A DNA stretch of 64,000 nucleotides from an uncultured Erysipelotrichaceae bacterium (GTDB lineage: Bacteria; Bacillota_I; Bacilli_A; RFN20; CAG-826), in contig ONAT01000002.1 of NCBI GenBank assembly GCA_900315885.1, forward strand, positions 28,776 through 92,775. Direction: 5' to 3'. The first letter of the stretch is position 1, and every line of letters begins with the position of its first letter. Positions 9,053 to 38,206 of this stretch are shown piece after piece. A program made the position numbers and the translations under genes. The notes beneath the pieces were generated by a model that saw only the letters and a program-made list of their open reading frames with translations, was not told the DNA's origin and did no database searches.

Positions 9053-9084
9053 TAAAAAATGCTAAATGGCAATCACTTAGCATT
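9053..9084 (-). terminator. Rho-independent terminator.
   Basis: Minus-strand hairpin ATGCTAAgtgattgccatTTAGCAT followed by TTTTTT. Confidence 0.55.
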
Positions 9085-9094
9085 AAATAAATCA

Positions 9095-9286
9095 TTATTT
9101 AGAAATAATACGATAAATAATAAGCGCTGAATAGGAATATATTTGCTCATTAGTATTTGATAAAAAATGTGATGTAGCGTATTTAATATCAATAAAACTC
9201 TCATCAGGAAGCGATTTAAAAAAAGCATTAATCTGTTCTTCTAAATCTTCTTCATTTTCTTCATCAATTACGGCGACTGCAATCAC
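9095..9286 (-). CDS. Small acidic hypothetical protein (63 aa).
   Basis: ORF track only; lies between the flavoprotein gene and a terminator. Confidence 0.25.
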   Translation of the reverse strand: MIAVAVIDEENEEDLEEQINAFFKSLPDESFIDIKYATSHFLSNTNEQIYSYSALIIYRIISK

Positions 9287-9352
9287 GATTAATCACCCTT
9301 ATTAATAGTAACCAATGAATAATACAAATAAACTCTAATAATGTCGAATTAC

Positions 9353-14977: not shown

Positions 14978-16710
14978 TATTTGTTACCTCCTAAAGTGTC
15001 TTGAGAATCACATATCTCTTTATAAACCTGACATATTTTAACTAACTCTTCATGTTTACCTAAGCCCACAATCTTGCCTTCATCTAAAACAATAATTTCA
15101 TCAGCATTTTTAATAGCGTTAACACGTTGTGAGATAATTAATAATGTCGTTTCTTTATAATTATTTTTAATAGCAGTACGTAAATCTAAGTCTGTTTTAA
15201 AGTCAAGCGCGGATGTTGAGTCATCTAGCACTAAAATCTTTGGCTTTTTAATTAGAGCTCGAGCAATAGATAACCTTTGTCTTTGTCCACCCGAGAAATT
15301 CTTTCCTAATTCTTCGACAACACTGTCAAGACCATTTTCTTTGCTTTCGACAACGTTACGTGCTTGAGCATTATCAAGAGCAAACCACATATCTTCATCG
15401 CTTGCATTTCTATTACCAAATAACAAATTAGAACGTATTGTTCCTTTAAAGATTGCAACTTTTTGGTCAACGACTGCAATGCTACTTCTTAATTCATCTA
15501 ACGATATATCTTTAATGTTTACATCATTATAATATATCGCACCTTTAGTAACATCATAGAAGCGATTTAATAAATTAATGATTGTGGTTTTACCACTTCC
15601 TGTACCACCAATGATACCGATAGTATTCCCTCGTTTAATATCAAAACTTGCGTCTTTTATTGCGTAAGAATCATTATCTGAATAAGAATAAGATACATTA
15701 TCAAATTTAATGATATCTTCTTTATCAGTTGTTTTTTCTTTACCACTTACAATTGTTGGTTCAAGCACTAGGACATCATTTATTCTTTTTGCGGATACCG
15801 AGGCTTTAGAGAATGTGACAACTAAATCACCAACAACCACAACTGCTAAAGATATTTGAACTAAATAATTAATTAATGAAGATACTTCTCCTTTTGATAA
15901 GCCAAAAGCCCATGAAGAAGAATTACCACTAAAATAAAAAATTAAAATAATTGCTACATTTACGATAACAGTCGTCAAAGGATTAAGTAAAGCAGAAAGC
16001 ACGGACAAGGAAGTTGATGTTTTTTGAACATCATTAACTTCTTTATAAAATCTATTTCTTTCATATTCTTGTTTATTAAAAGCTCTAACAACACGTGTAC
16101 CAGTTAAATTTTCTTTTGTAATATTAGTAATGTTATCAATTTCAGTTTGGATTTTACGGTTGTATGGTAAAGAGAATTTAGAACTTAAAAATAAGACTAA
16201 ACCAATAAGTAGACCAACACCAACGAAAATGATACCAAGTTTAGGCGATACAAAGAAAGACATAACAGTGCCACCTATAACAATTAAAGGTGCCCGCACT
16301 ACTAAACGAATTAACATTGCCACTGCTCTTTGTGTTGTTGAAACATCGGTGGTTAATCTAGTTTGCAAAGAACTAACACCGATATCATCAATTTCTTTAA
16401 AAGAAAGAGTGTTAACTTTCGCATACAAATCTATACTGACATTGTAGGCGTATTTTGAAGATATACGGCAAGCGATGTATTGGCAAACCATTGTAGTAAA
16501 AAAGCCTATAACCGCAAGAGAGAGTAAAATAAGTCCTTGCTTAACAATATAATCCGATGTTAAGTTTTCACCACTATCAATATAATCAATAATATTCGCC
16601 ACGATTAATGGCACAATTAATTCAAAAATAGCTTCCAATACTTTAAAGCAAGGGCCAGCTATAACGCCTGCCTTATATGGGGCTAAATATTTTTTAAATA
16701 ATTTAAGCAT
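14977..16710 (-). CDS. ABC transporter, fused permease/ATP-binding subunit; heterodimer partner of the downstream gene.
   Basis: Walker A GGTGSGKTTIINL, signature FSGGQRQRLSIARAL, Walker B ILVLDDSTSALD. Stop overlaps the partner's start. Confidence 0.85.
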   Translation of the reverse strand: MLKLFKKYLAPYKAGVIAGPCFKVLEAIFELIVPLIVANIIDYIDSGENLTSDYIVKQGLILLSLAVIGFFTTMVCQYIACRISSKYAYNVSIDLYAKVNTLSFKEIDDIGVSSLQTRLTTDVSTTQRAVAMLIRLVVRAPLIVIGGTVMSFFVSPKLGIIFVGVGLLIGLVLFLSSKFSLPYNRKIQTEIDNITNITKENLTGTRVVRAFNKQEYERNRFYKEVNDVQKTSTSLSVLSALLNPLTTVIVNVAIILIFYFSGNSSSWAFGLSKGEVSSLINYLVQISLAVVVVGDLVVTFSKASVSAKRINDVLVLEPTIVSGKEKTTDKEDIIKFDNVSYSYSDNDSYAIKDASFDIKRGNTIGIIGGTGSGKTTIINLLNRFYDVTKGAIYYNDVNIKDISLDELRSSIAVVDQKVAIFKGTIRSNLLFGNRNASDEDMWFALDNAQARNVVESKENGLDSVVEELGKNFSGGQRQRLSIARALIKKPKILVLDDSTSALDFKTDLDLRTAIKNNYKETTLLIISQRVNAIKNADEIIVLDEGKIVGLGKHEELVKICQVYKEICDSQDTLGGNK

Positions 16711-17040
16711 ATTTTAAACGACCACCATTCAAATACTTTACTTTTATAGAATATCACTTGCATTCTATGAATGCAATTAAACTTTACTTTCGTCATATTA
16801 CAAAACAATCATACATTTTACTGATATTTTTATGCATTTTTCTATTGATTATAAATTACTTGTCTATGTCCAATTTTTATTGAATAAGATTTTTAAAAAA
16901 ATTATTTCAAAAATACAAATACAAGTGCAAAAAGAGCATTATTTAGGATTTTAATTCACTAATATTTTTAAAATATTATTAAAAATTATTAATTTGCGTT
17001 ATAATTAATATATCTTTATAAATTTTAGGAGATTAGAGTA

Positions 17041-17547
17041 ATGATTAGAATAATTGTACCAATGTATGGAGAAATTGAAATTGAATTAGATTATGAAAAC
17101 GCCCCAAACACATGTGCAAATTTCGTTGAATTGGCACGTAAAGGTTTCTATGATGGCTTAACATTCCATCGTATTATTAAAGGTTTTATGATTCAAGGCG
17201 GTTGTCCAATCGGTAATGGCACTGGTGGCCCAGGCTACACAATTAAAGGCGAATTTAAGATTAATGATTTTGAAAATAATTTGTCACATAAACGTGGTGT
17301 AATATCTATGGCACGTGCTTTAGGTAAAAACACTGCTGGATCTCAATTCTTTATTATGCATAAAGATGGTGAATATCTTGATGGACAATATGCTGCTTTT
17401 GGTAAAGTAGTTAAAGGCATGGATGTCATCGATCGCATTGCTAATGTAAAAACAAGTCCATCTGACCGTCCTTTAGAAAGAGTAATTATGTCTAAAGTCG
17501 AGGTCATTGATGAACCTGTTAAAAAAGTTGTTAAATTAAAAGAATAA
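17041..17547 (+). CDS. ppiB: Cyclophilin-type peptidyl-prolyl cis-trans isomerase.
   Basis: GFYDGLTFHRIIKGFMIQGGCP, GNGTGGPGYTI, SMARALGKNTAGSQFFI; RBS AGGAGA. Confidence 0.9.
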   Translation: MIRIIVPMYGEIEIELDYENAPNTCANFVELARKGFYDGLTFHRIIKGFMIQGGCPIGNGTGGPGYTIKGEFKINDFENNLSHKRGVISMARALGKNTAGSQFFIMHKDGEYLDGQYAAFGKVVKGMDVIDRIANVKTSPSDRPLERVIMSKVEVIDEPVKKVVKLKE

Positions 17548-23310: not shown

Positions 23311-23913
23311 ATGGAAAAAAAGTTGATTGGCATACCCATACGAAAATATAAAGATTTAAAAACCGATGTTATCGGCATATATGCCCGTTATCTAGATTAT
23401 TTTGAAAGCAACAATTTAATTGTTGTCTTTTTGACGTTAAACAATTATAAATATCTTATTAATTCTTTATCTTGCCTTGCACTTATTGGTGGGGGAGATG
23501 TTAATGCTAAGATATATAATTCTCTTGATACACTTGATTATGACTATGAACTAGATAAACTTGAATTTTTATTAATAAAAGAGGCTCTTGAACGCAAGTT
23601 ACCTATTTTTGGTATATGTCGAGGCTTACAAATTCTTAATATATATTTTGGTGGAACCTTAAAAGAAATCCCTTCTTCACATCTTGGTTTACACAATATA
23701 AAACTTAAAAATGATGTAGTAAAAAGCGTTAATTCTTTTCATCATCTTTGTATTGATAATTTAGCTAGTAATTTTTCGATATTAGCCAAAAGTAATGATT
23801 TCGTAATTGAAGAAATCGAAGACAAAAAAAGGATGATATTTGCCATACAATATCACCCTGAAATAAATTTTGATTATGAAGTAATTAATTACTTCTTATC
23901 ATATTTGCGTTAA
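23311..23913 (+). CDS. Class I glutamine amidotransferase-like / peptidase C26 gamma-glutamyl hydrolase (PuuD-like).
   Basis: Nucleophile elbow FGICRGLQILN; His-Glu in AIQYHPE. Confidence 0.7.
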   Translation: MEKKLIGIPIRKYKDLKTDVIGIYARYLDYFESNNLIVVFLTLNNYKYLINSLSCLALIGGGDVNAKIYNSLDTLDYDYELDKLEFLLIKEALERKLPIFGICRGLQILNIYFGGTLKEIPSSHLGLHNIKLKNDVVKSVNSFHHLCIDNLASNFSILAKSNDFVIEEIEDKKRMIFAIQYHPEINFDYEVINYFLSYLR

Positions 23914-25971
23914 TTAATAACGCATAATATAGCCACCAGATTTTGTAATCTCATCATAAGCATTATCCATCAATTGATAATCATAACGCTTATTTTCAAA
24001 GTTTTTATAAACTTCGTCATAAGGAATACCAGATACACTTTCAACAGTTTTGCTAACTAAATCAAATAGTTCATCTAGACCATCAAATGAAGTAATGCAT
24101 GAGTGGTATTTTAATTCTGAATCACCGTCAGAATCTTTGTAATAAAGATTTTTACTATTAAATACTTTTGTTCCATCATCTTTATAAGTAATCAAACTCT
24201 TTTTCATTGGCACATAGCCATTAACAATCATATTTGCGTTCCATCTATTATGTTCTTGATACGCCATCGCATTTCTTAAAGATAAAGTATGTGAGAAATG
24301 AGTAGGATATACAATATTTCCATCTTTTCTTTGGATCTCTTTAAAATTATCATAAATTTTAAAATATTCTTCGCGACTTATAGCTTTACTCTTATCATCT
24401 GTGACTTGTAGGCCCATCATACCTAATTTTTGTAAAATAGAAATAACAGAATCAGAATTGCTACGTTTTTTATCAACATCTAATTTTTTCCATACTTCGT
24501 TAATGGTTAATTTAGTATTTGGATTTCTTTCTTTTTCGTAATTGTACGCTCTTGCTTTCGCACTACCTAAAAGTTTTTCATTAATGATAACATCTTCATT
24601 AATGACACTTTCGACTGTGCCAAATGGAATTAAGCCATTATCTTTAATAATGCTTTCATAACGAGCGTTATCGATTTTTACATAAATATTTGTGTTAGAC
24701 TTAACATTCCATTCATGAAGTTTTTCTTTTAAGCGCAGAGCTAACTCGACATTTTGTAAATCATCACCAAATGAGATAATAAAAGCATTAAATCCATTAG
24801 TAATAGAGACACAATTATGTATCTTTTTATAGAAATCGAAATTATTAATGTCTAAATGTTCAAATGTTGTATTACTTATTTGATCACATCTTGGGAAATA
24901 TTCATCATTAATATCAAGATATTCCATTCTCTTAATGGTGTGATTAAAAAGATTATCTTCAATGTTGTTTTTATCAAAAATATAATAATTTACTGGTTTC
25001 CCGACGAATTTATCGTTTTTAATCGTAATAAATTGATAGAACTTAACAAGATTTAAATATAATGTTTTATTTGTGCCCCCAAAGCCGATTAAGAAGGCAT
25101 TAATTTTACTATCCGCATTAACTGTTCCTGTTTTAGTATCAAGTATTTTACCAAATGAATGTGAAAAATTATTGGATGAAACAAATAAATCACTTGTTAA
25201 TTGATGTTTATTAAAGAAATGAATATTTAAATTTGTGCCTTTAATCATTTTCTTTATTAAGTACCAGTTCTTATCTTTAATTAAGAAATATGAGTCATTT
25301 TCAAATTTTGAAAGATAATCAATAAGTTTGTATTGCTTTAATATGTCTTCTTCAAAAGAAATAAAGATATTATTTTCTTTGGCAAAGCGTTTCAAATCTT
25401 CAACTTTATTAATAATTGCAACATGCTTCTTTTCGTGCATTAATTCATCTTTAATTTTTTTATCTTCACTACTTAATAAAATGTAGACTCTCTTTTTCGT
25501 AGATTTTATAAAAGTTTTCGCATTTTCGTTATAGCCTAAAACCACTAATGAATTCTTTTTGATGATTAAATTTTTAAAGAAATTAACAATTTTATTAAAA
25601 AATAAATCAATAACTAAAGAGAATGTTATATAGGCGTAAAGTAACGCAACAACATAATATGCACATTCAAAATATGTGTTTTGTAAAGCCTGAGTCAAGT
25701 TACCTCTTGAAACATTGAGAGTTATCATTTTAAAACTATTATAAATAGAGTCAAAAATGATAATTAGAGGATTACCTACACCTTCATAGATATAACCACT
25801 TATCAATAAAGTAATAGATATGATAAAAAGAGGGACATAAAAAGAAGAATATTCTTTTAAAAAGAGATGCTTCTCTTTTATTATTTTATAAATTAATAAA
25901 CATAATAATGTAAAATCTAAAATGCAACAAATAATCGATATAATAGTCATTATTGAAGTCCTCCTGGACAA
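23914..25971 (-). CDS. Integral membrane protein (4-5 N-terminal TM helices) with two Rossmann-like (RCK/TrkA-N or SLOG-like) domains and a C-terminal RyR-like domain; candidate effector for the upstream TIR proteins.
   Basis: TM segments in aa 1-130. Glycine-rich beta-alpha starts LVVLGYNENAKTF and AFLIGFGGTNKTLYL. C-terminal MAYQEHNRWNANMIVNGYVP resembles the RyR repeat core (A..EHNxW......GW/Y). Start overlaps the 3' end of the TIR gene by about 20 nt. Confidence 0.45.
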   Translation of the reverse strand: MSRRTSIMTIISIICCILDFTLLCLLIYKIIKEKHLFLKEYSSFYVPLFIISITLLISGYIYEGVGNPLIIIFDSIYNSFKMITLNVSRGNLTQALQNTYFECAYYVVALLYAYITFSLVIDLFFNKIVNFFKNLIIKKNSLVVLGYNENAKTFIKSTKKRVYILLSSEDKKIKDELMHEKKHVAIINKVEDLKRFAKENNIFISFEEDILKQYKLIDYLSKFENDSYFLIKDKNWYLIKKMIKGTNLNIHFFNKHQLTSDLFVSSNNFSHSFGKILDTKTGTVNADSKINAFLIGFGGTNKTLYLNLVKFYQFITIKNDKFVGKPVNYYIFDKNNIEDNLFNHTIKRMEYLDINDEYFPRCDQISNTTFEHLDINNFDFYKKIHNCVSITNGFNAFIISFGDDLQNVELALRLKEKLHEWNVKSNTNIYVKIDNARYESIIKDNGLIPFGTVESVINEDVIINEKLLGSAKARAYNYEKERNPNTKLTINEVWKKLDVDKKRSNSDSVISILQKLGMMGLQVTDDKSKAISREEYFKIYDNFKEIQRKDGNIVYPTHFSHTLSLRNAMAYQEHNRWNANMIVNGYVPMKKSLITYKDDGTKVFNSKNLYYKDSDGDSELKYHSCITSFDGLDELFDLVSKTVESVSGIPYDEVYKNFENKRYDYQLMDNAYDEITKSGGYIMRY

Positions 25972-26945
25972 ATGTAATTGTTTTCAAATCCTTCTTTTTC
26001 TAATATCTTAAATAAACCTTTTGATTGACGTTTAGGAAGGGTAAAATAAACCCTATTTGTCGTGCCTGAATCACTAATGGAAATATCAGTAAGTCCAGCA
26101 TTTTGCAATAATTTAATAAATTGTTCCTTAATCATTGAATCGTAAATATCGACAAAACATTTAAATGTTACACCATACATGTTACTTACAAGAATTAAAT
26201 AAGTAACAGTATAATTATCAATTGAATAATTATCATATACTTTATTTAAAATAACGATTTCTTTACTTGTTTTTTTTGGTAAATCAATGAAAGGACAATG
26301 TTGATGTGCCATATAAAATTTGCAAAAACAATCATCTAATTCTTCACCGTTTTTATAACAGACTCGATTAGTTTCTGTGATGTATTGACGATACATTTGT
26401 GGAACGATAAATTGAAATTGATAAGAATAACGTGGAATTTTTTCAATTCCAGGAATCGCAATTTTTAAAGAAACATAACCTAGTTTACCTAATACTTCTT
26501 TGTTAAATTCTTCTTTTGTTAATAAATTTGATTCAGCTTCAAACAAATCAGAAAATAATGTGTTCTTTTTTAATTCTTCTTTTAATAAAGCTAAATCATC
26601 AATATATGTGGCATTTGGTAAAAATGACTTTTTAGTGCCTTTAAAAACATATAATTTTTTATGCATGGAAATTAAACGACCTATTTCAAACATAGTCCAA
26701 GGCGTATTAATATCTCCAACAATCACCGCACATGTTGATTTCGCAATCATTTCATTAATGCGGTTATAAAAATCTTGAGTCTCCGCATTTAATAACTTAT
26801 CAGATAAAATATTAACTTCATCTCCACAATAAGCGATAATCTCATTTACTAATTCTTCGTTTGCCCGAGCGTAACTTAAAAACACTCCAACTTCTTTTTG
26901 TTGGTCTGCACTTATTTTAGTAATTTCTAAATTTAATTCACCCAT
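25950..26945 (-). CDS. TIR-domain protein (N-terminal TIR, roughly aa 18-110) with a ~200 aa C-terminal domain of unknown function; paralog of the upstream gene.
   Basis: Box-1 VGVFLSYARANEE (aa 19-31). Beta-C CAVIVGD. Alpha-C helix TPWTMFEIGRL has W83 and putative catalytic E87 in the S-x-W-C-x-x-E-L position. The C-terminal region (GVTFKCFVDIYD..KEQFIKLL..RVYFTLPK) is paralogous to the 359 aa neighbour. Confidence 0.6.
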   Translation of the reverse strand: MGELNLEITKISADQQKEVGVFLSYARANEELVNEIIAYCGDEVNILSDKLLNAETQDFYNRINEMIAKSTCAVIVGDINTPWTMFEIGRLISMHKKLYVFKGTKKSFLPNATYIDDLALLKEELKKNTLFSDLFEAESNLLTKEEFNKEVLGKLGYVSLKIAIPGIEKIPRYSYQFQFIVPQMYRQYITETNRVCYKNGEELDDCFCKFYMAHQHCPFIDLPKKTSKEIVILNKVYDNYSIDNYTVTYLILVSNMYGVTFKCFVDIYDSMIKEQFIKLLQNAGLTDISISDSGTTNRVYFTLPKRQSKGLFKILEKEGFENNYICPGGLQ

Positions 26946-26956
26946 AAAGTTACCTC

Positions 26957-28036
26957 CTATTTCGGATAAAAATAGTTGACAGTTTCACTATATTCTTCTT
27001 TAACATCATCTTTGGCATCATAGAATAATCTGCCATCTTCAATATTAAGTGGGAAATACACTCTAACTTTATCATCAACAATCTTTTTTACGATTTGTTC
27101 TTTCTTTAATCCATCATCCACTAAAATAGTGACTAAATCACTTGGTGTAATGTCGTTATCTTGAATTTCAAAGAAAGGTAAGAAAGTAACACCTAATATT
27201 TCGTTATTTGGCACTACGAATTCCATCTTAATTGAACCAACTAAATCAGTTGGATCAACTTCTTCGCCACATTCAATTTTCTTAAAAGTTTTAATTTTTG
27301 AAAACATACTGCGAAGTGGAAAATCTAAATCAAGACGTTTCATTTCTTGATGATATGGCCAATAGCCAATATTTTCAAAACTTATTTTTTGTCCAAAATG
27401 CAATACTCTAATGCCAGTCATAACTGATTCTTCTAGCATTGTGTAAACATCATTAAGCGTGATATCATCACGTACTTTACTTAATCTTTCATATATTTTT
27501 AATAACGAATTATATCTTAAATCGAGCATAACGACAAATTTAACATAAAAAATACGATTACGAGTGTAGCAATCTATCGACTCATCTTTAAAAATGTTAA
27601 GAGGCAACGTGATAAAGTTTTTGACCGCTTCAATAACTTTTTCTTTACTAGAAAGTTGTACATCTCTAATTGGTGACTTAGAGAAAAGATTAAGACTTTC
27701 TGGACTTAATCCTGCATTATAAAGCATTAATTTCTTACCAATTAAAACTCCTGCTTCATGCATTGTGTAGTTATACATTTGAGGGTCATTAAGTGTTTCA
27801 TCATCAAGAACAATAATACCAACATCGGCTTTTAAACAGTTATAAATAGATTTTTCGACTAGAAAATCATTATCAAGATTTTCTTTACTTTTAACATATA
27901 AATAATAGTTAAAACCATATTTATCGAGTTCGTTTAAAAATTCACGGCATTCTTCAAGCTTATTTTCATTTAAACTAATATAAAGCAATAACCGTTTTCC
28001 TGGATTTCTAATTTCTCTTTTAGACGCAAGGAACAT
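26957..28036 (-). CDS. TIR-like domain protein (divergent N-terminal TIR or flavodoxin-like fold) with the same C-terminal domain as the downstream paralog.
   Basis: LLLYISLNENKLEE (box-1-like), GIIVLDDETLNDPQMYNYTMHEAG (beta-C plus helix with E94). C-terminal GVTFLPFFEIQDND..KEQIVKKIV..RVYFPLN aligns to the 331 aa paralog. Confidence 0.45.
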   Translation of the reverse strand: MFLASKREIRNPGKRLLLYISLNENKLEECREFLNELDKYGFNYYLYVKSKENLDNDFLVEKSIYNCLKADVGIIVLDDETLNDPQMYNYTMHEAGVLIGKKLMLYNAGLSPESLNLFSKSPIRDVQLSSKEKVIEAVKNFITLPLNIFKDESIDCYTRNRIFYVKFVVMLDLRYNSLLKIYERLSKVRDDITLNDVYTMLEESVMTGIRVLHFGQKISFENIGYWPYHQEMKRLDLDFPLRSMFSKIKTFKKIECGEEVDPTDLVGSIKMEFVVPNNEILGVTFLPFFEIQDNDITPSDLVTILVDDGLKKEQIVKKIVDDKVRVYFPLNIEDGRLFYDAKDDVKEEYSETVNYFYPK

Positions 28037-28037
28037 C

Positions 28038-29633
28038 TTACTCCACCTCCATTACATAAGCTTGATATGGTTCGATTACTTTGTAATCGTGAAAGTTGTT
28101 ATAATTATTATACAATACTCTTTTAACATTAGGCAAATTATTAAGGGTAATGACATTATTTGTACAATTACAAATAATTAATAAATTGCCTCGTTTATAA
28201 GAAATAATCCTCTCATCTAACATAATTTCTTCATAATAGCTTTGGGTAATTTGTGTTAAACTCTTACGAAGTTTTATGATTTTTTTATATTCATTAAGAA
28301 GAGATCTTTCTTCTTGCTCTTCTTTTTTAACATTTATTGTCTTGTAATTTGGATTAATGTGAAACCAAGGTTTAGAAGAAGAAAAGCCAGCGTATTCACT
28401 ATCATCCCATTGCATAATGGTACGTGCATTATCGCGGCTTGTATCTTTTACAGCGTTAACAAATTCTTCTTCACTTAAAGTGGTATTTAATTTATAAGTT
28501 GTACGAATTCTTACATCATCAAAGTCTGAAACTTTTTTAAATGGGTAATTAGTCATACCGATTTCTTCGCCGTTATAAATAAAGGGTGTTCCTTTTAACA
28601 TATACATTAAAACCGCTAACATAGAGCCGGATTCAATAAAATAATCCATATCACCATATAAACTCATCGCGCGTTCAATATCGTGATTAGTTAAATATAA
28701 GCCCATCCAGCCTTTTTCATTTAATTCGTTTTGATATGCACTTATCAAGTTTCGCATAGCTTTAACATCCATCTTATTGCTAGACATATTATGTAAATCT
28801 ACTTTTGCACAATTAGTAAAACCAAAAGTATAAACCATATCTAATTCATCATTACAATAATCTAGGGCTTGTTTGATTGTTGGATTTCCTCCAATCTCAC
28901 CAATAGTCATAATGTTATAATGCGAAAAAATTTCTCGTTTAAATTCTTTTAAAATATTATGAACTTCTTTCAAGTTACTAAATAAGGAATAATCATAAAC
29001 TAAATCTTTATTAATTGGAGTGGTATTTTCTAATTTCTTTTTGCATAGGTGTGAAATTGCATCTAATCTGAAGCCATCAATACCTAAAGCAAGATAATAC
29101 TTGATTATTTTCTTTACTTCTTTTTTAAGATTAATGCTCTTCCAGTTTAAATCTGGCATTTTATCAGAGAAGATATGTAAAAAATATTCTTTGCGTTCTT
29201 CGTTATATGAAAACGCACTGCCTCCAAAAAAACTACCCCAATTATATTTTTCTTTACTCCAAATATAAAAATCGTCATAATATGGGTCTTTTGCACATGA
29301 TTTTTTAAACCATTCATGCTCAATTGAAGTGTGATTTAAGACTAAATCAAAAATAATCTTTAATCCTAAGTTATGAGCCTTAGTTATCATTTCTTTAACA
29401 TCTTCCATTGTGCCATAATCAGGATTTATTTTGTAATAGTCACGAATATCATATCCGTTATCGTCCATCGGAGAATCAAATATTGGACAAATCCATATTA
29501 AATCAATTCCTAAATCTTTTAGATAATCTAATTTTGAAGTAATGCCTTTTATGGTTCCCACGCTTGAATCAATACTTTTAAAACTTTTAGGATATATTTG
29601 ATAACCAATCGCACTTTTATACCACATTGTCAT
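28038..29633 (-). CDS. GH13 alpha-glucosidase / oligo-1,6-glucosidase-type glycoside hydrolase.
   Basis: YQIYPKSF, DLIWICPIFDSPMDDNGYDIRDY, catalytic region GIDGFRLDAISHL, HDIERAMSLYGD; length 531 aa. Confidence 0.85.
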   Translation of the reverse strand: MTMWYKSAIGYQIYPKSFKSIDSSVGTIKGITSKLDYLKDLGIDLIWICPIFDSPMDDNGYDIRDYYKINPDYGTMEDVKEMITKAHNLGLKIIFDLVLNHTSIEHEWFKKSCAKDPYYDDFYIWSKEKYNWGSFFGGSAFSYNEERKEYFLHIFSDKMPDLNWKSINLKKEVKKIIKYYLALGIDGFRLDAISHLCKKKLENTTPINKDLVYDYSLFSNLKEVHNILKEFKREIFSHYNIMTIGEIGGNPTIKQALDYCNDELDMVYTFGFTNCAKVDLHNMSSNKMDVKAMRNLISAYQNELNEKGWMGLYLTNHDIERAMSLYGDMDYFIESGSMLAVLMYMLKGTPFIYNGEEIGMTNYPFKKVSDFDDVRIRTTYKLNTTLSEEEFVNAVKDTSRDNARTIMQWDDSEYAGFSSSKPWFHINPNYKTINVKKEEQEERSLLNEYKKIIKLRKSLTQITQSYYEEIMLDERIISYKRGNLLIICNCTNNVITLNNLPNVKRVLYNNYNNFHDYKVIEPYQAYVMEVE

Positions 29634-29639
29634 CCACTC

Positions 29640-30563
29640 CTAAATCTCATTATTCATTTCGTTTTCGTTTTGATTTTTGATTAACATTGTCATTGCTTCA
29701 ATGTAATTTTGTAATTTTTTTAATGCCTCAATTTGTATATCGACAATATTGATACTCTCTTTTGCAAATATTGATTTATACATATTGATTTTCCAATCTT
29801 TGATTAAAATAAATAAGTTATCATCAAATAAAACAAGACATAAATTTGTTTTAATAAAATTTTGGAAATCATATAATTCTTTAATTATTTGATAATTTAA
29901 AACGGTATATATTTTGTTATCAAGTGTGGCGTAAAGAGCAAAATTTTTATCATAAAGATAACTATTATTCATCGTTCCTAATCCATATTGTTTTAAATTT
30001 TTTTCGTTATAGGAAAGTTTACCTTTCTTATTGTCATTGCGTAAAATAATCATTTCATTGTAAAGAAAATCTATTTTTGTTTTTATTAACACATCATATT
30101 TATCTTTATCGTGCTTCAATTGAAATAAATCAAAATAAGCTCGACTAGAGGTTTGCGTAAAAGAATACACTTCTTTAAAATCATTAATAAGAATGTAATC
30201 TTTAATGAATTTACGTTCGACATCATTTAGCCCATTAGTGTTTTTGAAAAGTGCTAAACCATCAAGCATTGCTTCATTTTCTAAAAGTGTTTGATGGAAA
30301 ATTTTATATTTCTTATTTAAATGAAAATACATAAGAATAAAAGATATGACACTTAACACAAAGGCTAAAGTTATAAAAATAATAACAGAACTAATATTTG
30401 AGGCACTATCATAAACCCATTTCAAATGTGGATTTAAGAAAGTATAAAAAGCATAAGCAAGCGCGGTCACAAAAAGCATAGCGAAAAGAACGACCAAGAA
30501 TAATTTAAACTTGTTCAAGCGTTTCTTATTCCTTATTTTTTTGCTTGCATAACTTAATTCCAT
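29640..30563 (-). CDS. Membrane protein of unknown function (two N-terminal TM helices plus a ~220 aa soluble domain), sitting where JetD would be.
   Basis: TM helices FKLFLVVLFAMLFVTALAYAF and ISSVIIFITLAFVLSVISFILMYF. Start assigned to the internal Met MELSYASKK with RBS GGGGAGA (track ORF starts at 30590). No recognisable Toprim or other catalytic motif. Confidence 0.4.
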   Translation of the reverse strand: MELSYASKKIRNKKRLNKFKLFLVVLFAMLFVTALAYAFYTFLNPHLKWVYDSASNISSVIIFITLAFVLSVISFILMYFHLNKKYKIFHQTLLENEAMLDGLALFKNTNGLNDVERKFIKDYILINDFKEVYSFTQTSSRAYFDLFQLKHDKDKYDVLIKTKIDFLYNEMIILRNDNKKGKLSYNEKNLKQYGLGTMNNSYLYDKNFALYATLDNKIYTVLNYQIIKELYDFQNFIKTNLCLVLFDDNLFILIKDWKINMYKSIFAKESINIVDIQIEALKKLQNYIEAMTMLIKNQNENEMNNEI

Positions 30564-30614
30564 ATTCTCCCCAATGTTAAATAAGACCAACTAAAAGCGT
30601 TGGTCTATTTAATT

Positions 30615-33600
30615 TTATTTAGCAAAAGATACTTTTTCTTCTTCTGCGTATAATCTTACACGAGATGTGTTCTTATCGTGTAATACTACTAATGTTTCAT
30701 CAACTAATTCAGAAATATCGGCAATCTTATCAGATGGAGCACTGAGAATAGCTTGTAAGCCGAATTTACGTAATAAACGAATTGATTCCGTAATACGACC
30801 TTTATCCATCTTAGAGAAGGCTTCATCAAAGATGATAAGACGTGTGGAATTTCCAAGTTCACCTGGATCATTGACGCGATATAATTGAGCAAAACTTGCT
30901 AAAACTGCAATGTAGAAAGGAGTTTGTGTTTCACCACCACTCTTTTTCTTGATCATTTTAGAAAGACGTTGTTCTTGTCCTTCTTTGTTTGTAACGATTA
31001 AGTCAAAGTCTAAATAGGAACGATAATCTGTAAATTTTTCAACATTTGCAGCTAATTGAGCTGTTTTATCACCATGATCACCGACATCAACGATTTGTCT
31101 AAATAAATCGTTCATAACTTCAGAATATTTTTCAATAAAGGCTGATTCATCTTCGCCAACTTGAAGTAATAAGTCATCTTTAATCATATCGTAGTAACGA
31201 TGATATAGTTGACTTGGCTTACATGTAAAGCGATAGGAGTCGTTACCAAAGCGAGATTGTGATAAAGCATCATTTAAATCTTCAATTTGTGTTTCAACAC
31301 CTTCGATAGCGCTTCTTAATTTAGAGATGAAGTCATCTTTAAATTGCTTTGTTGCCTTATTATAAGCATCGTTAATTGCGATACGATAATGTGGTAATTT
31401 AATATCGCGCAAATCAGATAATTCTTTTTCGTAAGCATCATTATCTTTTTGGTCAGTATCATATGATAAACGATAATCTTTAACATAATCACGACGTAAT
31501 TTCACAACACTATTGAAAATCGTTTGAGCGCGGTATTGCACTTGTGAGTATTTAGCTTGGAAATCAGCAATAATGTCAAGTGGTGACTTACCTTCCACGA
31601 TTAATTGGTTAAATAGTGGCTCTGCTTCTTCGGCGACAACAAAAGCATCATAATTCTCTTTTAAGTGATTTTCTCTTTCAAGAGTTTTATTCTTTGTTTC
31701 AGGTATTTTTTCTTCTTTTAATGTCTTAATTTGCGTATTGAGTTGTCCACGTTCTTCATACAAACTTTGACGTTCATTTTCAAGATTCTTGATATCATCT
31801 TCGACATCTTTAATACGACGATCAAAGCTTTCAATTTGTGTGACATCGTGTTTAGATAACTCATCATCACAATAAGCAATTGTTTGTTTAAGTCCATCGA
31901 CATTTCTTGAAGCTTCAATTAGCGCAAGTGTTGTATTACTTTCATTAGTGTTAATTGATTCTAAGGATGCAGCTTCAGAAATATCTTTATGCACTTCTCT
32001 TAACATAGCAACGAGATGGTTGTTACGGTCAAGTTCTGCACGTTTTAAAGCAATTTGTGCTTCGTTAACACTTCTTCCAATATAAGAAGGTGTGTATAAA
32101 CGAGGGTTGATTTTTCCCATTGCAAAATTACGATAAATATCACAATCAGGAGTAATACCATTCATAGATTCACGAGCTTCTTGAGGATTACGACATTTCA
32201 TCAAACGCCCAATCAAGAAGTTAGTATAACATCTTGCTCCTTCATGGTCCGTTATAATTTCTTCTGCTAAAGAATTCTTCTCACAAGAATAATTTCTTTC
32301 AATAATCTTTTCTTGGTCAACAAGTGTTGTGCCATAGAAATGATTCTTAGCAAGTAAGTCACGTAAGATTTCGTAAGCATCTAAATAATATCTGCCATCA
32401 ACAAATAAATTGAATTTTTGGCTGTGTAAGAAACCTTCGATAGCGTTAATCCATTTTGGTGACTTAATATCAATCAAATCAGCATAAAGAGAAACAGTAA
32501 TTGGTTTACCATATTTCTCAGTTAACCTTCTTTGTAATTCATTTTTAATCATTACAAGGTTACGATCATAAGACTTTGTACCATTTCTTAAATCTGCTTC
32601 TTCCGCACGGAGTTGAGCGGATTGACGGTCAAAGTTTGTAATTGTACGACCTAAAGATACACTCATCGCTGAAACAAGTTTTTTGAACTTATCAAGCGAA
32701 TCACGCCACTCTTTCAAAATCATACTATCTAATGTTTCAATATGTGGTAATTCGTTATCGCGTAAATTTGTGGAAGTACGGACAACTAATTCAGCACATT
32801 CTAATAATTCATTAAATTCATAAGCGCGGTCATCATTTAAAATTGATTTATCAAGAGTTGATAACTTATTAACAATGTTAGAAGCTACGTTAATAAAGTC
32901 ATTCGCGTATTTTGTTAAATTGTTTTTAACAGCCTCCGCATCTTTATTTAAAGCCGCTAATCTTTCAATCGCAGCCTTACGTTGCTCTCTTAATTCATCA
33001 GTAAGTCGATAAGTATCATTACTTGCCTTATCTTGAATGAGACGAGTTTTACGACGATTAAGTTCAGCTATATTAACATCAATATCTGCTAATTCGTTTT
33101 CAATTTCTAACAATCTAGTTTGCGCATTACCAATTGAATCTTCATAAGATTTTAAACGATTCAATTCCATTTGTAATTCGGCTTTTTCGACAACATATCC
33201 ATAAATACTCATATTGTGGAAATTAGTCTTATAAGCTTCATAAGATTTTTCAATTTCTTCTAATCGCTCAACACGAAGTCCCATAATGAGAGCTTCATTT
33301 TCTAAACGTTTATATTGCAAAATGTTTTCTTGCATTGAATCGATAGAAATATTAGCTTGTGAATCACAAATATATTCTGTAATGAAAGTTGTAATATCGG
33401 TAATTGGGGTAAAGGAAACAGCTTTTTTGAAAAGTGAGAAATACTTGTCTTTAATATTTCCAAACTTTTTCTTTAACAATTCTTGATATTGTTTATTTGT
33501 ATCTAAGAACTTAAAGTTTCTTTCACCATAAGTTTCGGCAAAATACTTAGCCAATGTTTTAAAGTCCATTGGAATATTATTTTTAATAAATTCATTTTCT

Positions 33601-34013
33601 GGAATTTTATCTTCTAATAAGAAATAACGATGTTCTTCGCTTCCATCATCATATGAATCAAAGACAATACCTAAAGTAAATGATTTGTCATTTAAGTCAT
33701 CATAGAATTCCATAGCGATATAGGAAGTAAAGCGTCCATCACGTAAATACTTGAAACCACCATCTTCGGAATCACCTAATTCTCCACGAAGGTATCCTTT
33801 TAAAGTACGAGAAGATTTTTCACTCGCTGCTTTATTAAAGAAACGTCCAGAAGTATCGCCTAACAAAACGACTTGCATCGCATCAATAAGTGTTGATTTA
33901 CCAGAAGCATTAAGACCTGTTAAGAAAACAATTGGTTCAATGTTAATTGTTTCGTTCCAAAAATAGTGCCAGTTAATGATTTTAATTTTCTTGAGAGATT
34001 TCATCTGGCTCAC
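30615..34013 (-). CDS. SMC-like ABC ATPase of the MukB/MksB/JetC class (Wadjet JetC-like).
   Basis: N-terminal IKIINWHYFWNETINIEPIVFLTGLNASGKSTLIDAMQVVLLGD (Walker A preceded by the NW..F element typical of MksB/JetC). Long central coiled coil. C-terminal signature SGGETQTPFYIAVLASFAQLY and Walker B LIIFDEAFSKMD. 1132 aa. Confidence 0.75.
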   Translation of the reverse strand: MSQMKSLKKIKIINWHYFWNETINIEPIVFLTGLNASGKSTLIDAMQVVLLGDTSGRFFNKAASEKSSRTLKGYLRGELGDSEDGGFKYLRDGRFTSYIAMEFYDDLNDKSFTLGIVFDSYDDGSEEHRYFLLEDKIPENEFIKNNIPMDFKTLAKYFAETYGERNFKFLDTNKQYQELLKKKFGNIKDKYFSLFKKAVSFTPITDITTFITEYICDSQANISIDSMQENILQYKRLENEALIMGLRVERLEEIEKSYEAYKTNFHNMSIYGYVVEKAELQMELNRLKSYEDSIGNAQTRLLEIENELADIDVNIAELNRRKTRLIQDKASNDTYRLTDELREQRKAAIERLAALNKDAEAVKNNLTKYANDFINVASNIVNKLSTLDKSILNDDRAYEFNELLECAELVVRTSTNLRDNELPHIETLDSMILKEWRDSLDKFKKLVSAMSVSLGRTITNFDRQSAQLRAEEADLRNGTKSYDRNLVMIKNELQRRLTEKYGKPITVSLYADLIDIKSPKWINAIEGFLHSQKFNLFVDGRYYLDAYEILRDLLAKNHFYGTTLVDQEKIIERNYSCEKNSLAEEIITDHEGARCYTNFLIGRLMKCRNPQEARESMNGITPDCDIYRNFAMGKINPRLYTPSYIGRSVNEAQIALKRAELDRNNHLVAMLREVHKDISEAASLESINTNESNTTLALIEASRNVDGLKQTIAYCDDELSKHDVTQIESFDRRIKDVEDDIKNLENERQSLYEERGQLNTQIKTLKEEKIPETKNKTLERENHLKENYDAFVVAEEAEPLFNQLIVEGKSPLDIIADFQAKYSQVQYRAQTIFNSVVKLRRDYVKDYRLSYDTDQKDNDAYEKELSDLRDIKLPHYRIAINDAYNKATKQFKDDFISKLRSAIEGVETQIEDLNDALSQSRFGNDSYRFTCKPSQLYHRYYDMIKDDLLLQVGEDESAFIEKYSEVMNDLFRQIVDVGDHGDKTAQLAANVEKFTDYRSYLDFDLIVTNKEGQEQRLSKMIKKKSGGETQTPFYIAVLASFAQLYRVNDPGELGNSTRLIIFDEAFSKMDKGRITESIRLLRKFGLQAILSAPSDKIADISELVDETLVVLHDKNTSRVRLYAEEEKVSFAK

Positions 34014-34620
34014 CTACTTTCAATTGTTCTAAAGCTTCTGACATTGCTTTAATCTTTTGGTTATCAACCGCAAATAAGATACTTGGTAAAATATAGAATG
34101 CGACGTTACCTTCGTCATAAGATCCACTAACTTTAGCGATAATATTATGATTAGCTAAGAAACGCAGTGACTTAGCGAATAAACGACCACTCATTCTTTT
34201 ACCTGACATCGTAATATTATGGTCAATCATTGTTTTTAATAAAGTTGGAGTAGTGATATAAATCGCTTCACCAGTTTGGCTTGATTCATTTTTCTCAGTT
34301 TCATAAATTAAACGTAAGACAAATAAGATAAGTGATGTTTCTCTTTCCATTCTTAATCTATTTTGCTCGTTAAGATTAATCAAAGCTACAACACCATTAA
34401 GGACATCTTTTTCCATCATCCAATTAGTGTATTTTAAATAGTCATTTATTAAATCAAAGTGGCGTTCAATAAAACGATAATCAGGATTAATACGCATTGC
34501 TTTTTCTTTGTTATCAAATACATCACGTACAATGAAAGATTTTAAAAGCAATGTATTAGTAACACGTGCGAATTCGTTTTGTTCGCCATTTGATAATTTT
34601 TCAAATTCAGTTTCAAACAT
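33982..34620 (-). CDS. JetB/MksE-like protein (DUF4194-like size and position).
   Basis: 212 aa acidic protein; its stop overlaps the SMC-like gene start and its start overlaps the 480 aa gene stop. Assigned by operon position and size only. Confidence 0.45.
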   Translation of the reverse strand: MFETEFEKLSNGEQNEFARVTNTLLLKSFIVRDVFDNKEKAMRINPDYRFIERHFDLINDYLKYTNWMMEKDVLNGVVALINLNEQNRLRMERETSLILFVLRLIYETEKNESSQTGEAIYITTPTLLKTMIDHNITMSGKRMSGRLFAKSLRFLANHNIIAKVSGSYDEGNVAFYILPSILFAVDNQKIKAMSEALEQLKVGEPDEISQEN

Positions 34621-36062
34621 TATTCAGTTTTCTCCTTTCGTTTAAACACAAGTTTTGGTAAAACATAACCTTGAGAAAGGACATGTCCATCGTCGGAATA
34701 ATCTACTTCGTAGAAGCAATCATCATCATTACGATTTAAAGTTGCAAGAATTAAGAGAATAAAGGCATCGTAGTCTGGTAAAGGTATCTCCTCTGCTCTC
34801 ACTTCATCAGCATCACCAAACGCTCTTTCCATAAATTCAAGCACACGCGCACTTGTGAAGACATTACGGGTTTGATCCAAGAAGTTTTGCATAATTAAAT
34901 CGCCAGCTTCTTCAAAGTTATTGACAATTGGTAACGGTTCTCCTATTTCACGATATTGACGGATAATTGGCAGAGTTATTGAATCTGGATCAATATATCC
35001 TTGTTCGTGGAACATGAGAGCATCTTGCATTGAAGTTAAGATATTGCGCAAGTCTTTCGAACCATTTCCCGCCATTGCATCGGCATTCGCTTTTGCGTAA
35101 GCTTTAAATATAGTTTCCAAGTGACCTTTAATTGTCTTATCGTTATTGTTGAAATAAACAATTTTAGAAGCACTAGATTTGGTGTATTCGCTATGACTTG
35201 CATCAATTTGACTAATCATACCATTTAATTGTTCATACATATCTTGTATGTAATTTATCATGTTAATTAAATCCGCTTCTGCTTTTCCATAGTCGCGACT
35301 CTTTCTTAAAATCAAAGATTGCTCAATGAGCATTTTTCTTGTTTTTTCATCACGTAACCACTTTTGTAAAATGGAGGTTATTGGTCTTTTAAAACGAGTG
35401 ACAGAGTCAAATGTTTTCAAAGGGTGATAGAGTCTATCAGAAATACGTACTTTATAATCATCAAAGTGATTAGCAAGAACTTCATTTGTTGTAAACAAGT
35501 TTGATAGGCGATGTTGATAGATTTTAATTTGGTGTCCCAAAGTAACTAACTCAATACGAAGTTTTTTCGTATTTTCATAAGCTCTCAATAAAGTCACATA
35601 CATTAAATCATCTGGGTCATCATCTTCTAATTTCAATTCACTATACGTTGAGTGAACAAGAGAGTTATATGCCGCTTCTGATTCACTATTAATATCTTTT
35701 AAGCACGCAAGCATTTTAATAGAATACGAAGGCAGAATAATATATTCTTCAAACGATTCAGGATCTATTTGTACATCAATCCATCCAGTCTCTTCAAGTC
35801 TACGGAGAATGAATGCAGCACGACTAGGCAAAGTTGGATTTGCAAGAGCGTCATCTTCTGTGCCTTCTTCTGACATATCTAGACTCATAACTAGGTCAGT
35901 GGCATTCTCTTTTAAGATGCGCAAGAAATCTTGCTTTTTAATCGTCATCTCTTCAGTTTCTAGGCTCTTATATAATACTTCTAGAGCCATAGCGTATACT
36001 TCTTTATTTTTACTAGATAGGATTGAGAAAAAGTTGGTAGGAATTATATCAAATAATCGCAT
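34620..36062 (-). CDS. JetA/MksF-like (kleisin-like) protein (DUF3375-like size and position).
   Basis: 480 aa, first gene of the triad, gene order jetA-jetB-jetC as in Wadjet / MksFEB. Assigned by operon position and size only. Confidence 0.45.
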   Translation of the reverse strand: MRLFDIIPTNFFSILSSKNKEVYAMALEVLYKSLETEEMTIKKQDFLRILKENATDLVMSLDMSEEGTEDDALANPTLPSRAAFILRRLEETGWIDVQIDPESFEEYIILPSYSIKMLACLKDINSESEAAYNSLVHSTYSELKLEDDDPDDLMYVTLLRAYENTKKLRIELVTLGHQIKIYQHRLSNLFTTNEVLANHFDDYKVRISDRLYHPLKTFDSVTRFKRPITSILQKWLRDEKTRKMLIEQSLILRKSRDYGKAEADLINMINYIQDMYEQLNGMISQIDASHSEYTKSSASKIVYFNNNDKTIKGHLETIFKAYAKANADAMAGNGSKDLRNILTSMQDALMFHEQGYIDPDSITLPIIRQYREIGEPLPIVNNFEEAGDLIMQNFLDQTRNVFTSARVLEFMERAFGDADEVRAEEIPLPDYDAFILLILATLNRNDDDCFYEVDYSDDGHVLSQGYVLPKLVFKRKEKTE

Positions 36063-36936: not shown

Positions 36937-36967
36937 AAAACTACCACGCTGTGGTAGTTTTTTTTAC
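36937..36967. terminator. Bidirectional Rho-independent terminator between rpmB and the convergent membrane-protein gene.
   Basis: A7-ACTACCACGCTGTGGTAGT-T8 hairpin with flanking A and T runs. Confidence 0.65.
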
Positions 36968-37626
36968 ATCAATAAGGTTACGATTGTTAACAATAAATCA
37001 AATACAATTGTTAAAATCATAAATATCCATTCATAGGTCGCAAGTAATAATACTTTCGGCCTTTTTAATGTGCTTGTGCCGTTTTCTTCTTGGCGTTCCA
37101 TATACATCCATTTATAAAGCTTTGGATTAATAAATAATAACAAGATAACCACTACTAATATTACACAGATAATGCCTAAGTAAAGAGGATAATCTACAGT
37201 ATTATAAAAGAAAACGTAATTTGCCATTGTGGCGTAAGTAATAAATGTTAAACCAAAATGCGCAATAGATAGAATCATGTGCAATGTTGCATTACGCATC
37301 GTAGTAAAGAACAAACACATCATTATAACTGCATTAACTATCATAACTATTAATAAGAATGACAAGTTCGGTTGAAGCGTTAAATCAAATGCATTAATAG
37401 CAAATAATGATAACGCTAAAGCTAGAAACAAAGCAATGAAGCGCACATTCCAGTTATATTTATAATATAAACCATCTTGCATTTCATAAGGAAACATCGA
37501 ACCCATTAAGAACTTCTCTTTTTTCGCGTCATAATAGTTTGCGCGCCCAACATTAAGCAATATGATAAAAATCACTATTGCAACGATGATGCTAGGTATC
37601 ATAAACTCAATTTTCATCTTTATCAC
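36964..37626 (-). CDS. Integral membrane protein (6-7 TM helices), hypothetical.
   Basis: Hydropathy only. Confidence 0.45.
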   Translation of the reverse strand: MIKMKIEFMIPSIIVAIVIFIILLNVGRANYYDAKKEKFLMGSMFPYEMQDGLYYKYNWNVRFIALFLALALSLFAINAFDLTLQPNLSFLLIVMIVNAVIMMCLFFTTMRNATLHMILSIAHFGLTFITYATMANYVFFYNTVDYPLYLGIICVILVVVILLLFINPKLYKWMYMERQEENGTSTLKRPKVLLLATYEWIFMILTIVFDLLLTIVTLLM

Positions 37627-38206
37627 CTAATTTCCGAATTACTAATACTGAACCTTTTTCAACTTTTAATAATGCGATACGTTGAAATAATTTAATGTTT
37701 TTTAATAATCCTGTTGAAGAATCTAATTTGATATGTGTCATTTTTTCTACTGTGTAATCTAAAGATATCATCGCTTCTAAAAACGGACAAATAGAAATAA
37801 AATTACTATTTCCTTTAGTAATGATATGCGTTCCTTCTTCGAAATATTGAATTGACTCTTCTTCGGTTTCAAACACAATTTTTAAGTGTTTGTATTTTTT
37901 CATTAATAATAAATTGTAAAGATAATTATCAGAGGAAGTTTTAATATTTGATAAAATTGTAATTTCATCAAATCCTTTTTTATACAAGTATTTTATAGCG
38001 TATTCTACATCGTGTTCTTCTTCTTTTATTTCTTCTAAAGTCGAAGGATCAACCGAAGGAATATAACTTGTTTTAAAATAATCATAAAATATATCACTAC
38101 TTTTTATATCACTAAAATTTTTAGAAAGCACGAGTAAAGGATAGCCATCGTATCGCGATAATTGGCTATATTTAGTGTCATCAGTAATGATAATAACTTT
38201 ACGCAT
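37607..38206 (-). CDS. Hypothetical protein at the thiN (thiamine diphosphokinase) position of the conserved rsgA-rpe-thiN operon; family unconfirmed.
   Basis: Synteny with B. subtilis cpgA-rpe-thiN; the canonical TPK GDxDS motif is not evident. Confidence 0.3.
   Translation of the reverse strand: MRKVIIITDDTKYSQLSRYDGYPLLVLSKNFSDIKSSDIFYDYFKTSYIPSVDPSTLEEIKEEEHDVEYAIKYLYKKGFDEITILSNIKTSSDNYLYNLLLMKKYKHLKIVFETEEESIQYFEEGTHIITKGNSNFISICPFLEAMISLDYTVEKMTHIKLDSSTGLLKNIKLFQRIALLKVEKGSVLVIRKLGDKDEN

Follow-up and report, generated by a model that had tools for sequence, protein, structure and literature searches.

A TIR-domain gene pair and a tandem-RCK membrane protein with a RyR-like domain as a candidate Thoeris-like module in an uncultured Erysipelotrichaceae bacterium

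The locus described here lies in a stretch of 64,000 nucleotides (nt) of contig ONAT01000002.1 from an uncultured Erysipelotrichaceae bacterium, the whole of which is referred to as the window. It comprises three minus-strand genes, A, B and M, which encode a divergent TIR-like protein, a protein with a TIR domain, and a membrane protein with tandem RCK/KTN domains and a RyR-like C-terminus (Table 1); with moderate confidence, we interpret them as a Thoeris-like module for nucleotide signalling through TIR proteins, its most likely role being defence against phages. A and M are labelled 'hypothetical protein' in the NCBI records. The three open reading frames (ORFs) are present as given in a preliminary description of this DNA, all on the minus strand, with a gap of 11 nt between A and B. 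The overlap of about 20 nt between B and M given there is an artefact of taking the longest ORF. The true start of M is probably the ATG at 25950, since a strong Shine-Dalgarno sequence, AGGAGG, lies 9 nt upstream and most members of the M cluster in databases have 678 amino acids (aa); the overlap then shrinks to the single base of a TAATG junction, from which B and M are still considered to be translationally coupled.

Table 1 Features of the A-B-M locus, of its surroundings, and of related loci. Positions are those of the window unless a locus is named; AF2, AlphaFold2; TM, transmembrane.
Feature	Position or locus	Strand	Description	Basis
Gene A	26957..28036	-	359 aa; divergent TIR-like N-terminal domain and C-terminal alpha/beta domain common with B	
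Gene B	25950..26945	-	331 aa; TIR domain and Cys-rich C-terminal domain	
Gene M	23914..25971	-	685 aa from TTG, probably 678 aa from ATG at 25950; 4 TM helices, tandem RCK/KTN, RyR-like domain	
B/M junction	25948..25965	-	AGGAGG (25965-25960), 9 nt, ATG (25950-25948); 1-base overlap with TAA of B (TAATG)	Read from sequence
B TIR domain	26565..26888	-	Residues 20-127; box-1 VFLSYA, alpha-C TPWTMFEIGRL; E87 codon 26685-26687	
B C-terminal domain	25953..26498	-	Residues 150-331; motifs GVTFKCFVD, NRIYFTLP, GFxNNYxCPG; invariant C196, C208, C217, C263, C326	Family alignment
A N-terminal TIR-like region	27632..27997	-	Residues ~14-135; E94 at the catalytic-position Glu	Column alignment to B TIR domain
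M membrane region	25567..25971	-	Residues 1-135; helices 2-33, 38-63, 68-83, 99-135	AF2 secondary structure
M first RCK/KTN-like domain	25174..25548	-	Residues 142-266; degenerate glycine motif LVVLGYNEN	
M second RCK/KTN-like domain	24622..25107	-	Residues 289-450; conserved G296-F297-G298 and D333, dinucleotide-fold signature	
M C-terminal RyR-like domain	23917..24306	-	Residues 556-685; invariant E573, H574, R576, W577 (24241-24255), H623, Y663, D664, D669	
GH13 alpha-glucosidase	28038..29633	-	1 nt upstream of A	Pfam Alpha-amylase 2.3e-132
Wadjet jetA-jetB-jetC	30615..36062	-	Same strand, 2.6 kb upstream of the module	Pfam JetA 4e-96; PADLOC JetB 3e-67, JetC 1147 bits
Terminator-like hairpin	23830..23859	-	11 pairs and T-run, 55 nt past the M stop	Pattern scan, consensus match only
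A-B-GH127-like operon	L002 8761-12798; L007, L008, L010-L014 about 8850-12930		B stop overlaps glycosidase start	
TIR partner of M: 355-384 aa TIR proteins	L038, L050, L059		0-95 nt from M	
TIR partner of M: TIR+Sel1/TPR	L053			
TIR partner of M: TIR+PP2C	L034			
TIR partner of M: TIR and methyltransferase-like domain	L016 type		Most abundant species	
TIR partner of M: small TIRs	L051, L054, L062		In clusters with the order M, RyR protein, TIR, ~680-aa protein	
TIR partner of M: A/B family	Window, L088, L014			
DUF4062 protein near M	L072			

By profile comparison, B is a TIR-fold protein with a glutamate at the catalytic position, because its N-terminus matches Pfam-positive TIR_2 domains (hhalign 96.7%, E 4.6e-10, small alignment) and W83 and E87 are invariant. 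In this alignment FISY stands opposite FLSY of B, and the Trp and Glu of TIR domains stand opposite W83 and E87; F22, S24, W83, and E87 do not vary among the six sequences of the B family, and the flavodoxin-like fold of TIR domains is found in B. The motifs quoted in the preliminary description are present in B (VFLSYA, residues 21-26; TPWTMFEIGRL, residues 81-91) and in A (LLLYISLNE, MHEAG), and its view of B as a TIR-type protein with a Trp and a catalytic-position Glu is borne out. The Pfam search that it had put forward for recognising TIR domains fell short for both proteins, B reaching TIR_2 with E 0.0035 and 18.2 bits (cut-off 28) and A giving no match. B further showed a weak match to the Pfam nucleoside deoxyribosyltransferase family (Nuc_deoxyrib_tr), and a B homologue (P0007) carries a weak precomputed match to TIR_2. 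Searches of A, B, and M against Pfam, NCBIfam, PHROGs, and PADLOC returned nothing above threshold, and profile searches of PDB sequences with the family alignments nothing useful.

Similarity between A and B is not visible in pairwise comparison (BLASTP E 0.14); the profiles of the two families align over their full length (hhalign 93.2%, E 2.9e-7, 302 columns). The C-terminal domain that the two proteins had been said to share is thus real at the level of profiles, but the paralogy spans the whole proteins and not the C-terminus alone. E94-A95-G96 is invariant in the A family, which is also reached, weakly, by jackhmmer seeded with TIR_2 domains (1e-4 to 1e-6). We infer that A is a TIR-like protein through its full-length paralogy with B; the earlier claim that both proteins start with a TIR fold accordingly stood for B, and for A it comes from paralogy. 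The C-terminal domains of A and B are collinear in hhalign. Five cysteines of this domain do not vary among the B proteins and have no counterpart in the paralogous A family; as they lie in segments that AF2 could not model (confidence is low in the Cys-bearing loops), they hint at a candidate metal site in B.

The AF2 model of M, obtained with a 59-sequence alignment (predicted local distance difference test 88.9, predicted template modelling score 0.84), begins with four long helices, which are followed by two alpha/beta domains and a helical C-terminus. The quoted motifs of M (LVVLGYNENAKTF, AFLIGFGGTNKTLYL, and AYQEHNRWNANMIVNGY) are present, and the architecture proposed earlier, in which a membrane protein carries two domains of Rossmann type and one resembling RyR, is supported. 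In structure comparison M comes closest to K+ transport and gating-ring proteins (CASTOR, KtrA, TrkA, GsuK, SLO3), and a tandem RCK fold is found; as modelled, the Rossmann-like domains form two successive RCK/KTN domains like those in the gating rings of K+ channels. Like RCK/KTN-gated channels and transporters (TrkA, KtrA, MthK, GsuK, CASTOR, BK/SLO), M carries its two RCK-type domains right after the last membrane helix, and the second one keeps the GxGxxN...D signature of the dinucleotide fold. Unlike RCK channels, it has an additional RyR-like domain and lies in neighbourhoods rich in TIR and RyR genes; a TVGYG-type K+ selectivity filter is not visible in residues 1-140 or in the family consensus, and none of 59 M-family members matches Pfam TrkA_N or an ion-channel family. 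It had been foreseen that the Rossmann-like modules might turn out to be RCK domains of a K+ channel: they are of the RCK/KTN type, but the missing filter and the TIR- and RyR-rich contexts led us to reject M as a plain K+ channel. Foldseek of the model against viral structures gave weak matches only, of which the best was a phage potassium-channel-domain protein (E 0.014), and recovered no phage RyR protein; no match to M turned up by tblastn in collections of plasmids and phages.

The C-terminus of M was compared with RyR reference segments, taken from proteins neighbouring M that match PF02026, and aligned with them at 92.9% (hhalign, E 3.7e-7), with EHxRW and H623 in register; E573, H574, R576, W577, H623, D664, and D669 are invariant in 59 M-family sequences. 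For the RyR domains of the phage proteins RyDEP and RyR Tad, 2'cADPR, 3'cADPR, and cyclic ADP-ribose (cADPR) are ligands or hydrolysis substrates; the residues involved are the His and Trp of an H-x-x-W motif, another His, and an Asp (PMC13232231; 10.64898/2026.06.04.730250). The His, Trp, and His positions among these ligand residues are retained in M. In the phage proteins (PF02026, R12-type) the residues corresponding to the E-H-x-R-W and downstream His of M stack on the adenine and contact the ribose and phosphates of 2'/3'cADPR. Those proteins are small, soluble, dimeric anti-defence sponges or glycosidases, whereas M is a host membrane protein and would be a receptor, not an inhibitor; its domain is too divergent for the Pfam model, and an equivalent of the catalytic Asp is not assignable. 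The preliminary description had looked to the Rossmann modules for sensing of a nucleotide signal. The RyR-like domain, which has the phage-type H-x-x-W and His, is the more likely sensor. With animal ryanodine receptors M would share a logic in which an NAD+-derived cyclic ADP-ribose, the product of a TIR or cyclase enzyme, acts on a membrane channel with a RyR-repeat pocket; the relation is limited to the RyR repeat, the membrane domains being without detectable similarity, and binding of cADPR to the R12 domain itself is unsettled for the animal receptors.

M belongs to a large family. A word-indexed homologue search under-reported it, with three relatives; an exhaustive profile search at E<=1e-3 returned 1003 cluster representatives, of which 453 fell below 1e-30. 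At 50% identity the family thus comprises about 1,000 clusters, most of them from metagenomes of gut Firmicutes. Pfam (E<=0.01) assigned no family to 59 members, giving six scattered weak matches of one or two members each. For a census of gene neighbours, 71 metagenome loci were retrieved by a pattern inside M, and are therefore unbiased as to neighbours; dereplication left 36 loci with 110 proteins encoded at most two genes away from M. Of the Pfam families in this set, TIR_2 is found most often (9 of 110, best E 1.9e-20), followed by RyR (7 of 110). TIR genes make up an estimated well under 1% of bacterial genes, and the enrichment near M is on that estimate far beyond chance, with loci that are not fully independent. 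The TIR partners fall into at least six architectures, many of them on the same strand as M at gaps of 0-13 nt (Table 1). The RyR partners show HD-like motifs by eye and no Pfam HD match; 17 nt upstream of an M homologue in locus L006 lies a gene (2-1147) whose product combines a RyR repeat with a DprA/SLOG-like C-terminus. In many other loci the genes around M are unrelated ones, GH3, AraC, MFS, and an ATP-grasp enzyme among them.

Could M instead serve ion homeostasis as an ordinary cation channel or transporter under RCK control, adjacent to A and B by coincidence, with A/B acting alone, for example as an NAD+-depleting TIR effector? The structural matches, the phage potassium-channel-domain protein heading the viral matches, the size and spread of the family, and the many loci with unrelated neighbours would fit this. 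It nevertheless seems very unlikely: filter and Pfam channel matches are missing, TIR_2 and RyR are the two commonest neighbour families, the RyR-type ligand residues, invariant in M, play no part in RCK channels as known, B and M overlap as TAATG in the window and as ATGA in another lineage (L088), and M is frameshifted in some strains, which would be unusual for a housekeeping transporter.

Several further arrangements around M were recorded. A recurrent cluster consists of M, a 680-790 aa RyR (PF02026) protein whose N-terminal half shows HD-like motifs, a small TIR protein, and an unannotated protein of ~680-780 aa (L051, 5860-13526; L054, 6010-13818; L062, 851-6488), and judged from sequence looks like a separate multi-gene TIR/RyR system; in L039 (2781-10930) a radical SAM gene takes the place of the TIR gene. 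In three loci a type IV secretion coupling protein (TraG/TrwB) is encoded at most two genes away from M, an indication that conjugative elements carry some of the M copies. In the most abundant species, an antisense ORF of 775 aa (L016, 5911-8238, minus strand; also about 25 sister loci) covers the whole M gene and is probably a shadow ORF. In a scan of viral contigs no member of the B family was found, and M was found on one contig (L094, IMGVR_UViG_3300045988_176260), which over 6.2 kb shares 98.9% identity with the L016 locus on the chromosome; it has probably been misclassified or represents host DNA flanking a prophage.

The A/B pair is rare, being found in 8 of ~185,000 species representatives and in some metagenome contigs; it comes from metagenome-assembled genomes of gut Christensenellaceae, Clostridia, and Bacilli. 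In all loci with upstream DNA, the gene immediately upstream of the B homologue is A. The third gene is M in the window and its strain relatives, again in L088 (B 40% identical, ATGA overlap of B and M, GC content 22%), and, in the order A-B-GH127-M, in L014 (GC content 45%); A-B-M thus recurs in three divergent lineages, in L014 with an extra gene. The M proteins of the window and L014 are 23% identical, and that of L014 is the best match of the L088 protein among 232 M sequences.

In most cases the conserved partner of the A/B pair is not M but a GH127-like glycosidase. The gene overlaps the stop codon of B, its product scores above the Pfam threshold for GH127, and the E-T-C and C-C motifs of HypBA1-type cysteine glycosidases are retained. 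In L002 and L012 the A-B-GH127 operon is located between rpoZ and priA, the place of coaBC in the Bacillus gene order; A/B as a coaBC replacement was rejected, as Pfam gave no flavoprotein/DFP match and none other than the weak ones of B to TIR_2 and Nuc_deoxyrib_tr. A few kb downstream of the operon in L012, past priA and def, lies a gene for a 587-aa protein with TIR_2 and BspA-type leucine-rich repeats (15600-17363).

From these arrangements it could be argued that A/B works with glycoside hydrolases, a GH127-type cysteine furanosidase and, in the lineage of the window, GH13, and that M is a secondary neighbour; A and B would then be N-glycosidases or transferases of the TIR/nucleoside deoxyribosyltransferase fold, acting on nucleosides, ADP-ribose-like glycosides, or another sugar conjugate in metabolism or signal turnover. 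That A-B-GH127-like is the commonest arrangement, with its stop/start overlap and the preserved HypBA1-type motifs, speaks for this, as do the GH13 gene 0-1 nt upstream of A in the window and L001 and the A/B neighbourhoods, which are not defence islands. We consider it unlikely, given the match of B to bona fide TIR_2 domains with FLSY and W-x-x-x-E, the recurrence of A-B-M with start/stop overlaps in three lineages, and the independent tie of the M family to TIR genes. L014 holds both GH127 and M, so that the two are not simple alternatives, and no paper naming both GH127 and the TIR domain was found in the literature collection searched. The glycosidase explanation might, speculatively, be reconciled with a signalling module if the GH127-like enzyme processes a ribose-ribose-linked signal, an idea taken from RyDEP being a glycosidase; the strict pairing of A and B together with the GH127-like coupling may point to host turnover of ribose-ribose-bonded signals.

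Thoeris systems (types I-XI) have one or more TIR genes in an operon with one effector (10.64898/2025.12.03.692087), and A-B-M likewise has TIR genes and a non-TIR effector candidate in one operon, an arrangement that recurs in L088 and L014, while the M family as such is recurrently found near TIR genes. According to that survey, several TIR paralogues may serve one effector in types I and III, effectors are membrane-spanning in types II, V, VI, VII, and X, one TIR cluster can be paired with several alternative effectors, and 29 putative effector classes are distinguished, including an 'ion channel' (type X) (10.64898/2025.12.03.692087). Unlike Thoeris TIR proteins, A and B are strictly paired, and their C-terminal domain is without a Pfam, PDB-sequence, or confident fold match. 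M, with four TM helices, tandem RCK, and a RyR-like domain, matches no PADLOC or Pfam model and, by the labels in the part of the survey tables examined, is none of the described effectors (SIR2-SLOG, Macro-TM, SLOG, caspase-like, DUF2270, DUF6650, SLATT, CMP hydrolase, ion channel, HIT); the TIR proteins of type X (NKTY.., DUF1863-like), which accompany the 'ion channel' effector ThsK, are unrelated to A and B. In the part of the survey tables examined there is no RyR, Rossmann, TrkA, RCK, KTN, GH127, or DUF1680 label (10.64898/2025.12.03.692087), RCK domains are not mentioned in the best-ranked papers on TIR domains and anti-phage defence, and an effector class like M was not found in those parts of the resources that were checked. 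It is plausible that A-B-M is a new Thoeris-like variant. The layout first proposed, in which TIR proteins signal to a membrane effector, was strengthened by TIR_2 being the top neighbour family in the 36 M loci and by A-B-M in L088 and L014, but qualified by A/B usually standing with GH127.

What the analysis shows are protein folds, residue conservation, gene coupling, and the link of the M family to TIR genes. For the enzymatic activity, the identity of the signal, the domain that binds it, the channel or pore activity, and the anti-phage role we infer the following scheme. A and B, always encoded as a pair, would probably form a hetero-oligomer in which B, and perhaps A, has an NAD+-cleaving TIR site (E87 in B, E94 in A) and the C-terminal domain common to both has a sensing or assembly function. 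Once triggered, the TIR part would make an ADP-ribose-derived signal of the cADPR type, which M would take up in its RyR-like pocket (H574, W577, H623) or possibly in the dinucleotide-type site of the second RCK domain; the tandem-RCK ring would then act on the four-helix membrane domain, with ion leak or depolarisation and growth arrest as the outcome.

A TIR/RyR signalling system might also have a role outside defence (stress, membrane potential, or NAD status), or the RyR-like domain of M might degrade the signal as the RyDEP glycosidase does. A/B operons stand among housekeeping genes, as between rpoZ and priA in L002 and L012, and A, B, and M are without a PADLOC match; a His/Asp dyad can make RyR domains of the RyDEP type catalytic (PMC13232231), and M has an invariant His and several invariant Asp. 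We regard these possibilities as quite improbable, because the bacterial TIR signalling systems in the literature examined are all anti-phage, the partners found with M (TIR+Sel1/TPR, TIR+PP2C, DUF4062, HD-like with RyR, nearby type IV secretion genes) are typical of conflict systems, and Wadjet genes adjoin the module in the window.

A number of observations weigh against an A-B-M signalling module of the Thoeris kind. The case is weakened by domain assignments below threshold: the N-terminus of A taken alone is not recognisably TIR (hhalign against the TIR reference 4.7%), the RyR-like domain has no Pfam RyR match (E<=0.01) in 59 M members and was not recovered in either of two structure searches of the M model, and none of A, B, and M is matched by a PADLOC model. 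It is weakened also by the puzzle of A/B and GH127: about nine loci couple A/B to the GH127-like glycosidase (~635 aa) with M absent, the third gene of L001 is an ABC transporter and neither GH127 nor M, and A/B is present in 0 of the 71 metagenome M loci. P0128, which at 38% identity comes nearest to the M of the window among non-identical relatives, is encoded on a 4.4-kb contig that carries no TIR gene. The flanks of A/B in other genomes vary and are mostly housekeeping or unremarkable genes, and gave generic matches only in the PADLOC census; the Wadjet jetABC genes 2.6 kb upstream in the window count in favour of the module. Finally, M is frameshifted in some strains in which A and B are intact: it is split into ORFs of 94 aa and 600 aa in L091 (3765-5802) and in L092 and L093 (3700-5737), contigs from different samples. 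The split in L091 is a single 1-nt indel in DNA of 99.7% nt identity to the window, and the gene calls of L092 and L093 are identical to those of L091; most other strain copies of M are intact at 678 aa.

A further-reaching conjecture, which we regard as rather doubtful, is that the M family consists of receptor-channels gated by cADPR-type signals, in which TIR makes the signal, the RyR pocket reads it, and the RCK ring opens the pore. Host RyR domains would then be the original receptors and phage RyDEP and RyR Tad captured copies, the GH127-like enzyme would cut the ribose-ribose bond and reset the signal, and the whole would be a prokaryotic immune precedent for the animal cADPR-RyR axis. 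If the signalling module is real, M would be a new effector class in TIR (Thoeris-type) immunity, and the bacterial RyR repeat, so far characterised only in phage anti-defence proteins (two 2026 preprints), would gain a host-side function. TIR NADases, RCK-gated membrane proteins, and the nucleotide pocket of ryanodine receptors, usually studied apart, would be joined, and the question of cADPR and the RyR domain would become testable in a small bacterial protein. A role for the M family, for which there is no Pfam model, would annotate many genes.

In the window A, B, and M are the last genes of a co-directional minus-strand run (jetA-jetB-jetC, a 316-aa membrane protein, GH13 alpha-glucosidase, A, B, M) in which every gap is <=24 nt. 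The GH13 gene, a possible member of the module, is also found immediately upstream of A in L001 and L090-L093. A jetD gene was not found beside jetABC in the window (PADLOC, Pfam), so that three of the four Wadjet genes are accounted for. The gene after jetC (29640-30590, minus strand) encodes the 316-aa protein, which was considered as a divergent JetD and rejected for its two hydrophobic segments, its weak match to DUF3137 only, and the lack of a PADLOC match. Of the ORFs upstream of jetA, the first (36964-37626) has no PADLOC or Pfam match and the second (37607-38206) no Pfam match. Strain contig L090 has the same jetABC-without-jetD layout as the window. At the other end, the hairpin past M is likely, from its sequence pattern, to mark the end of the transcription unit. 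The stop of M abuts that of a convergent glutamine amidotransferase gene (23311-23913) with zero spacer, and the hairpin (23859-23830) sits within that gene.

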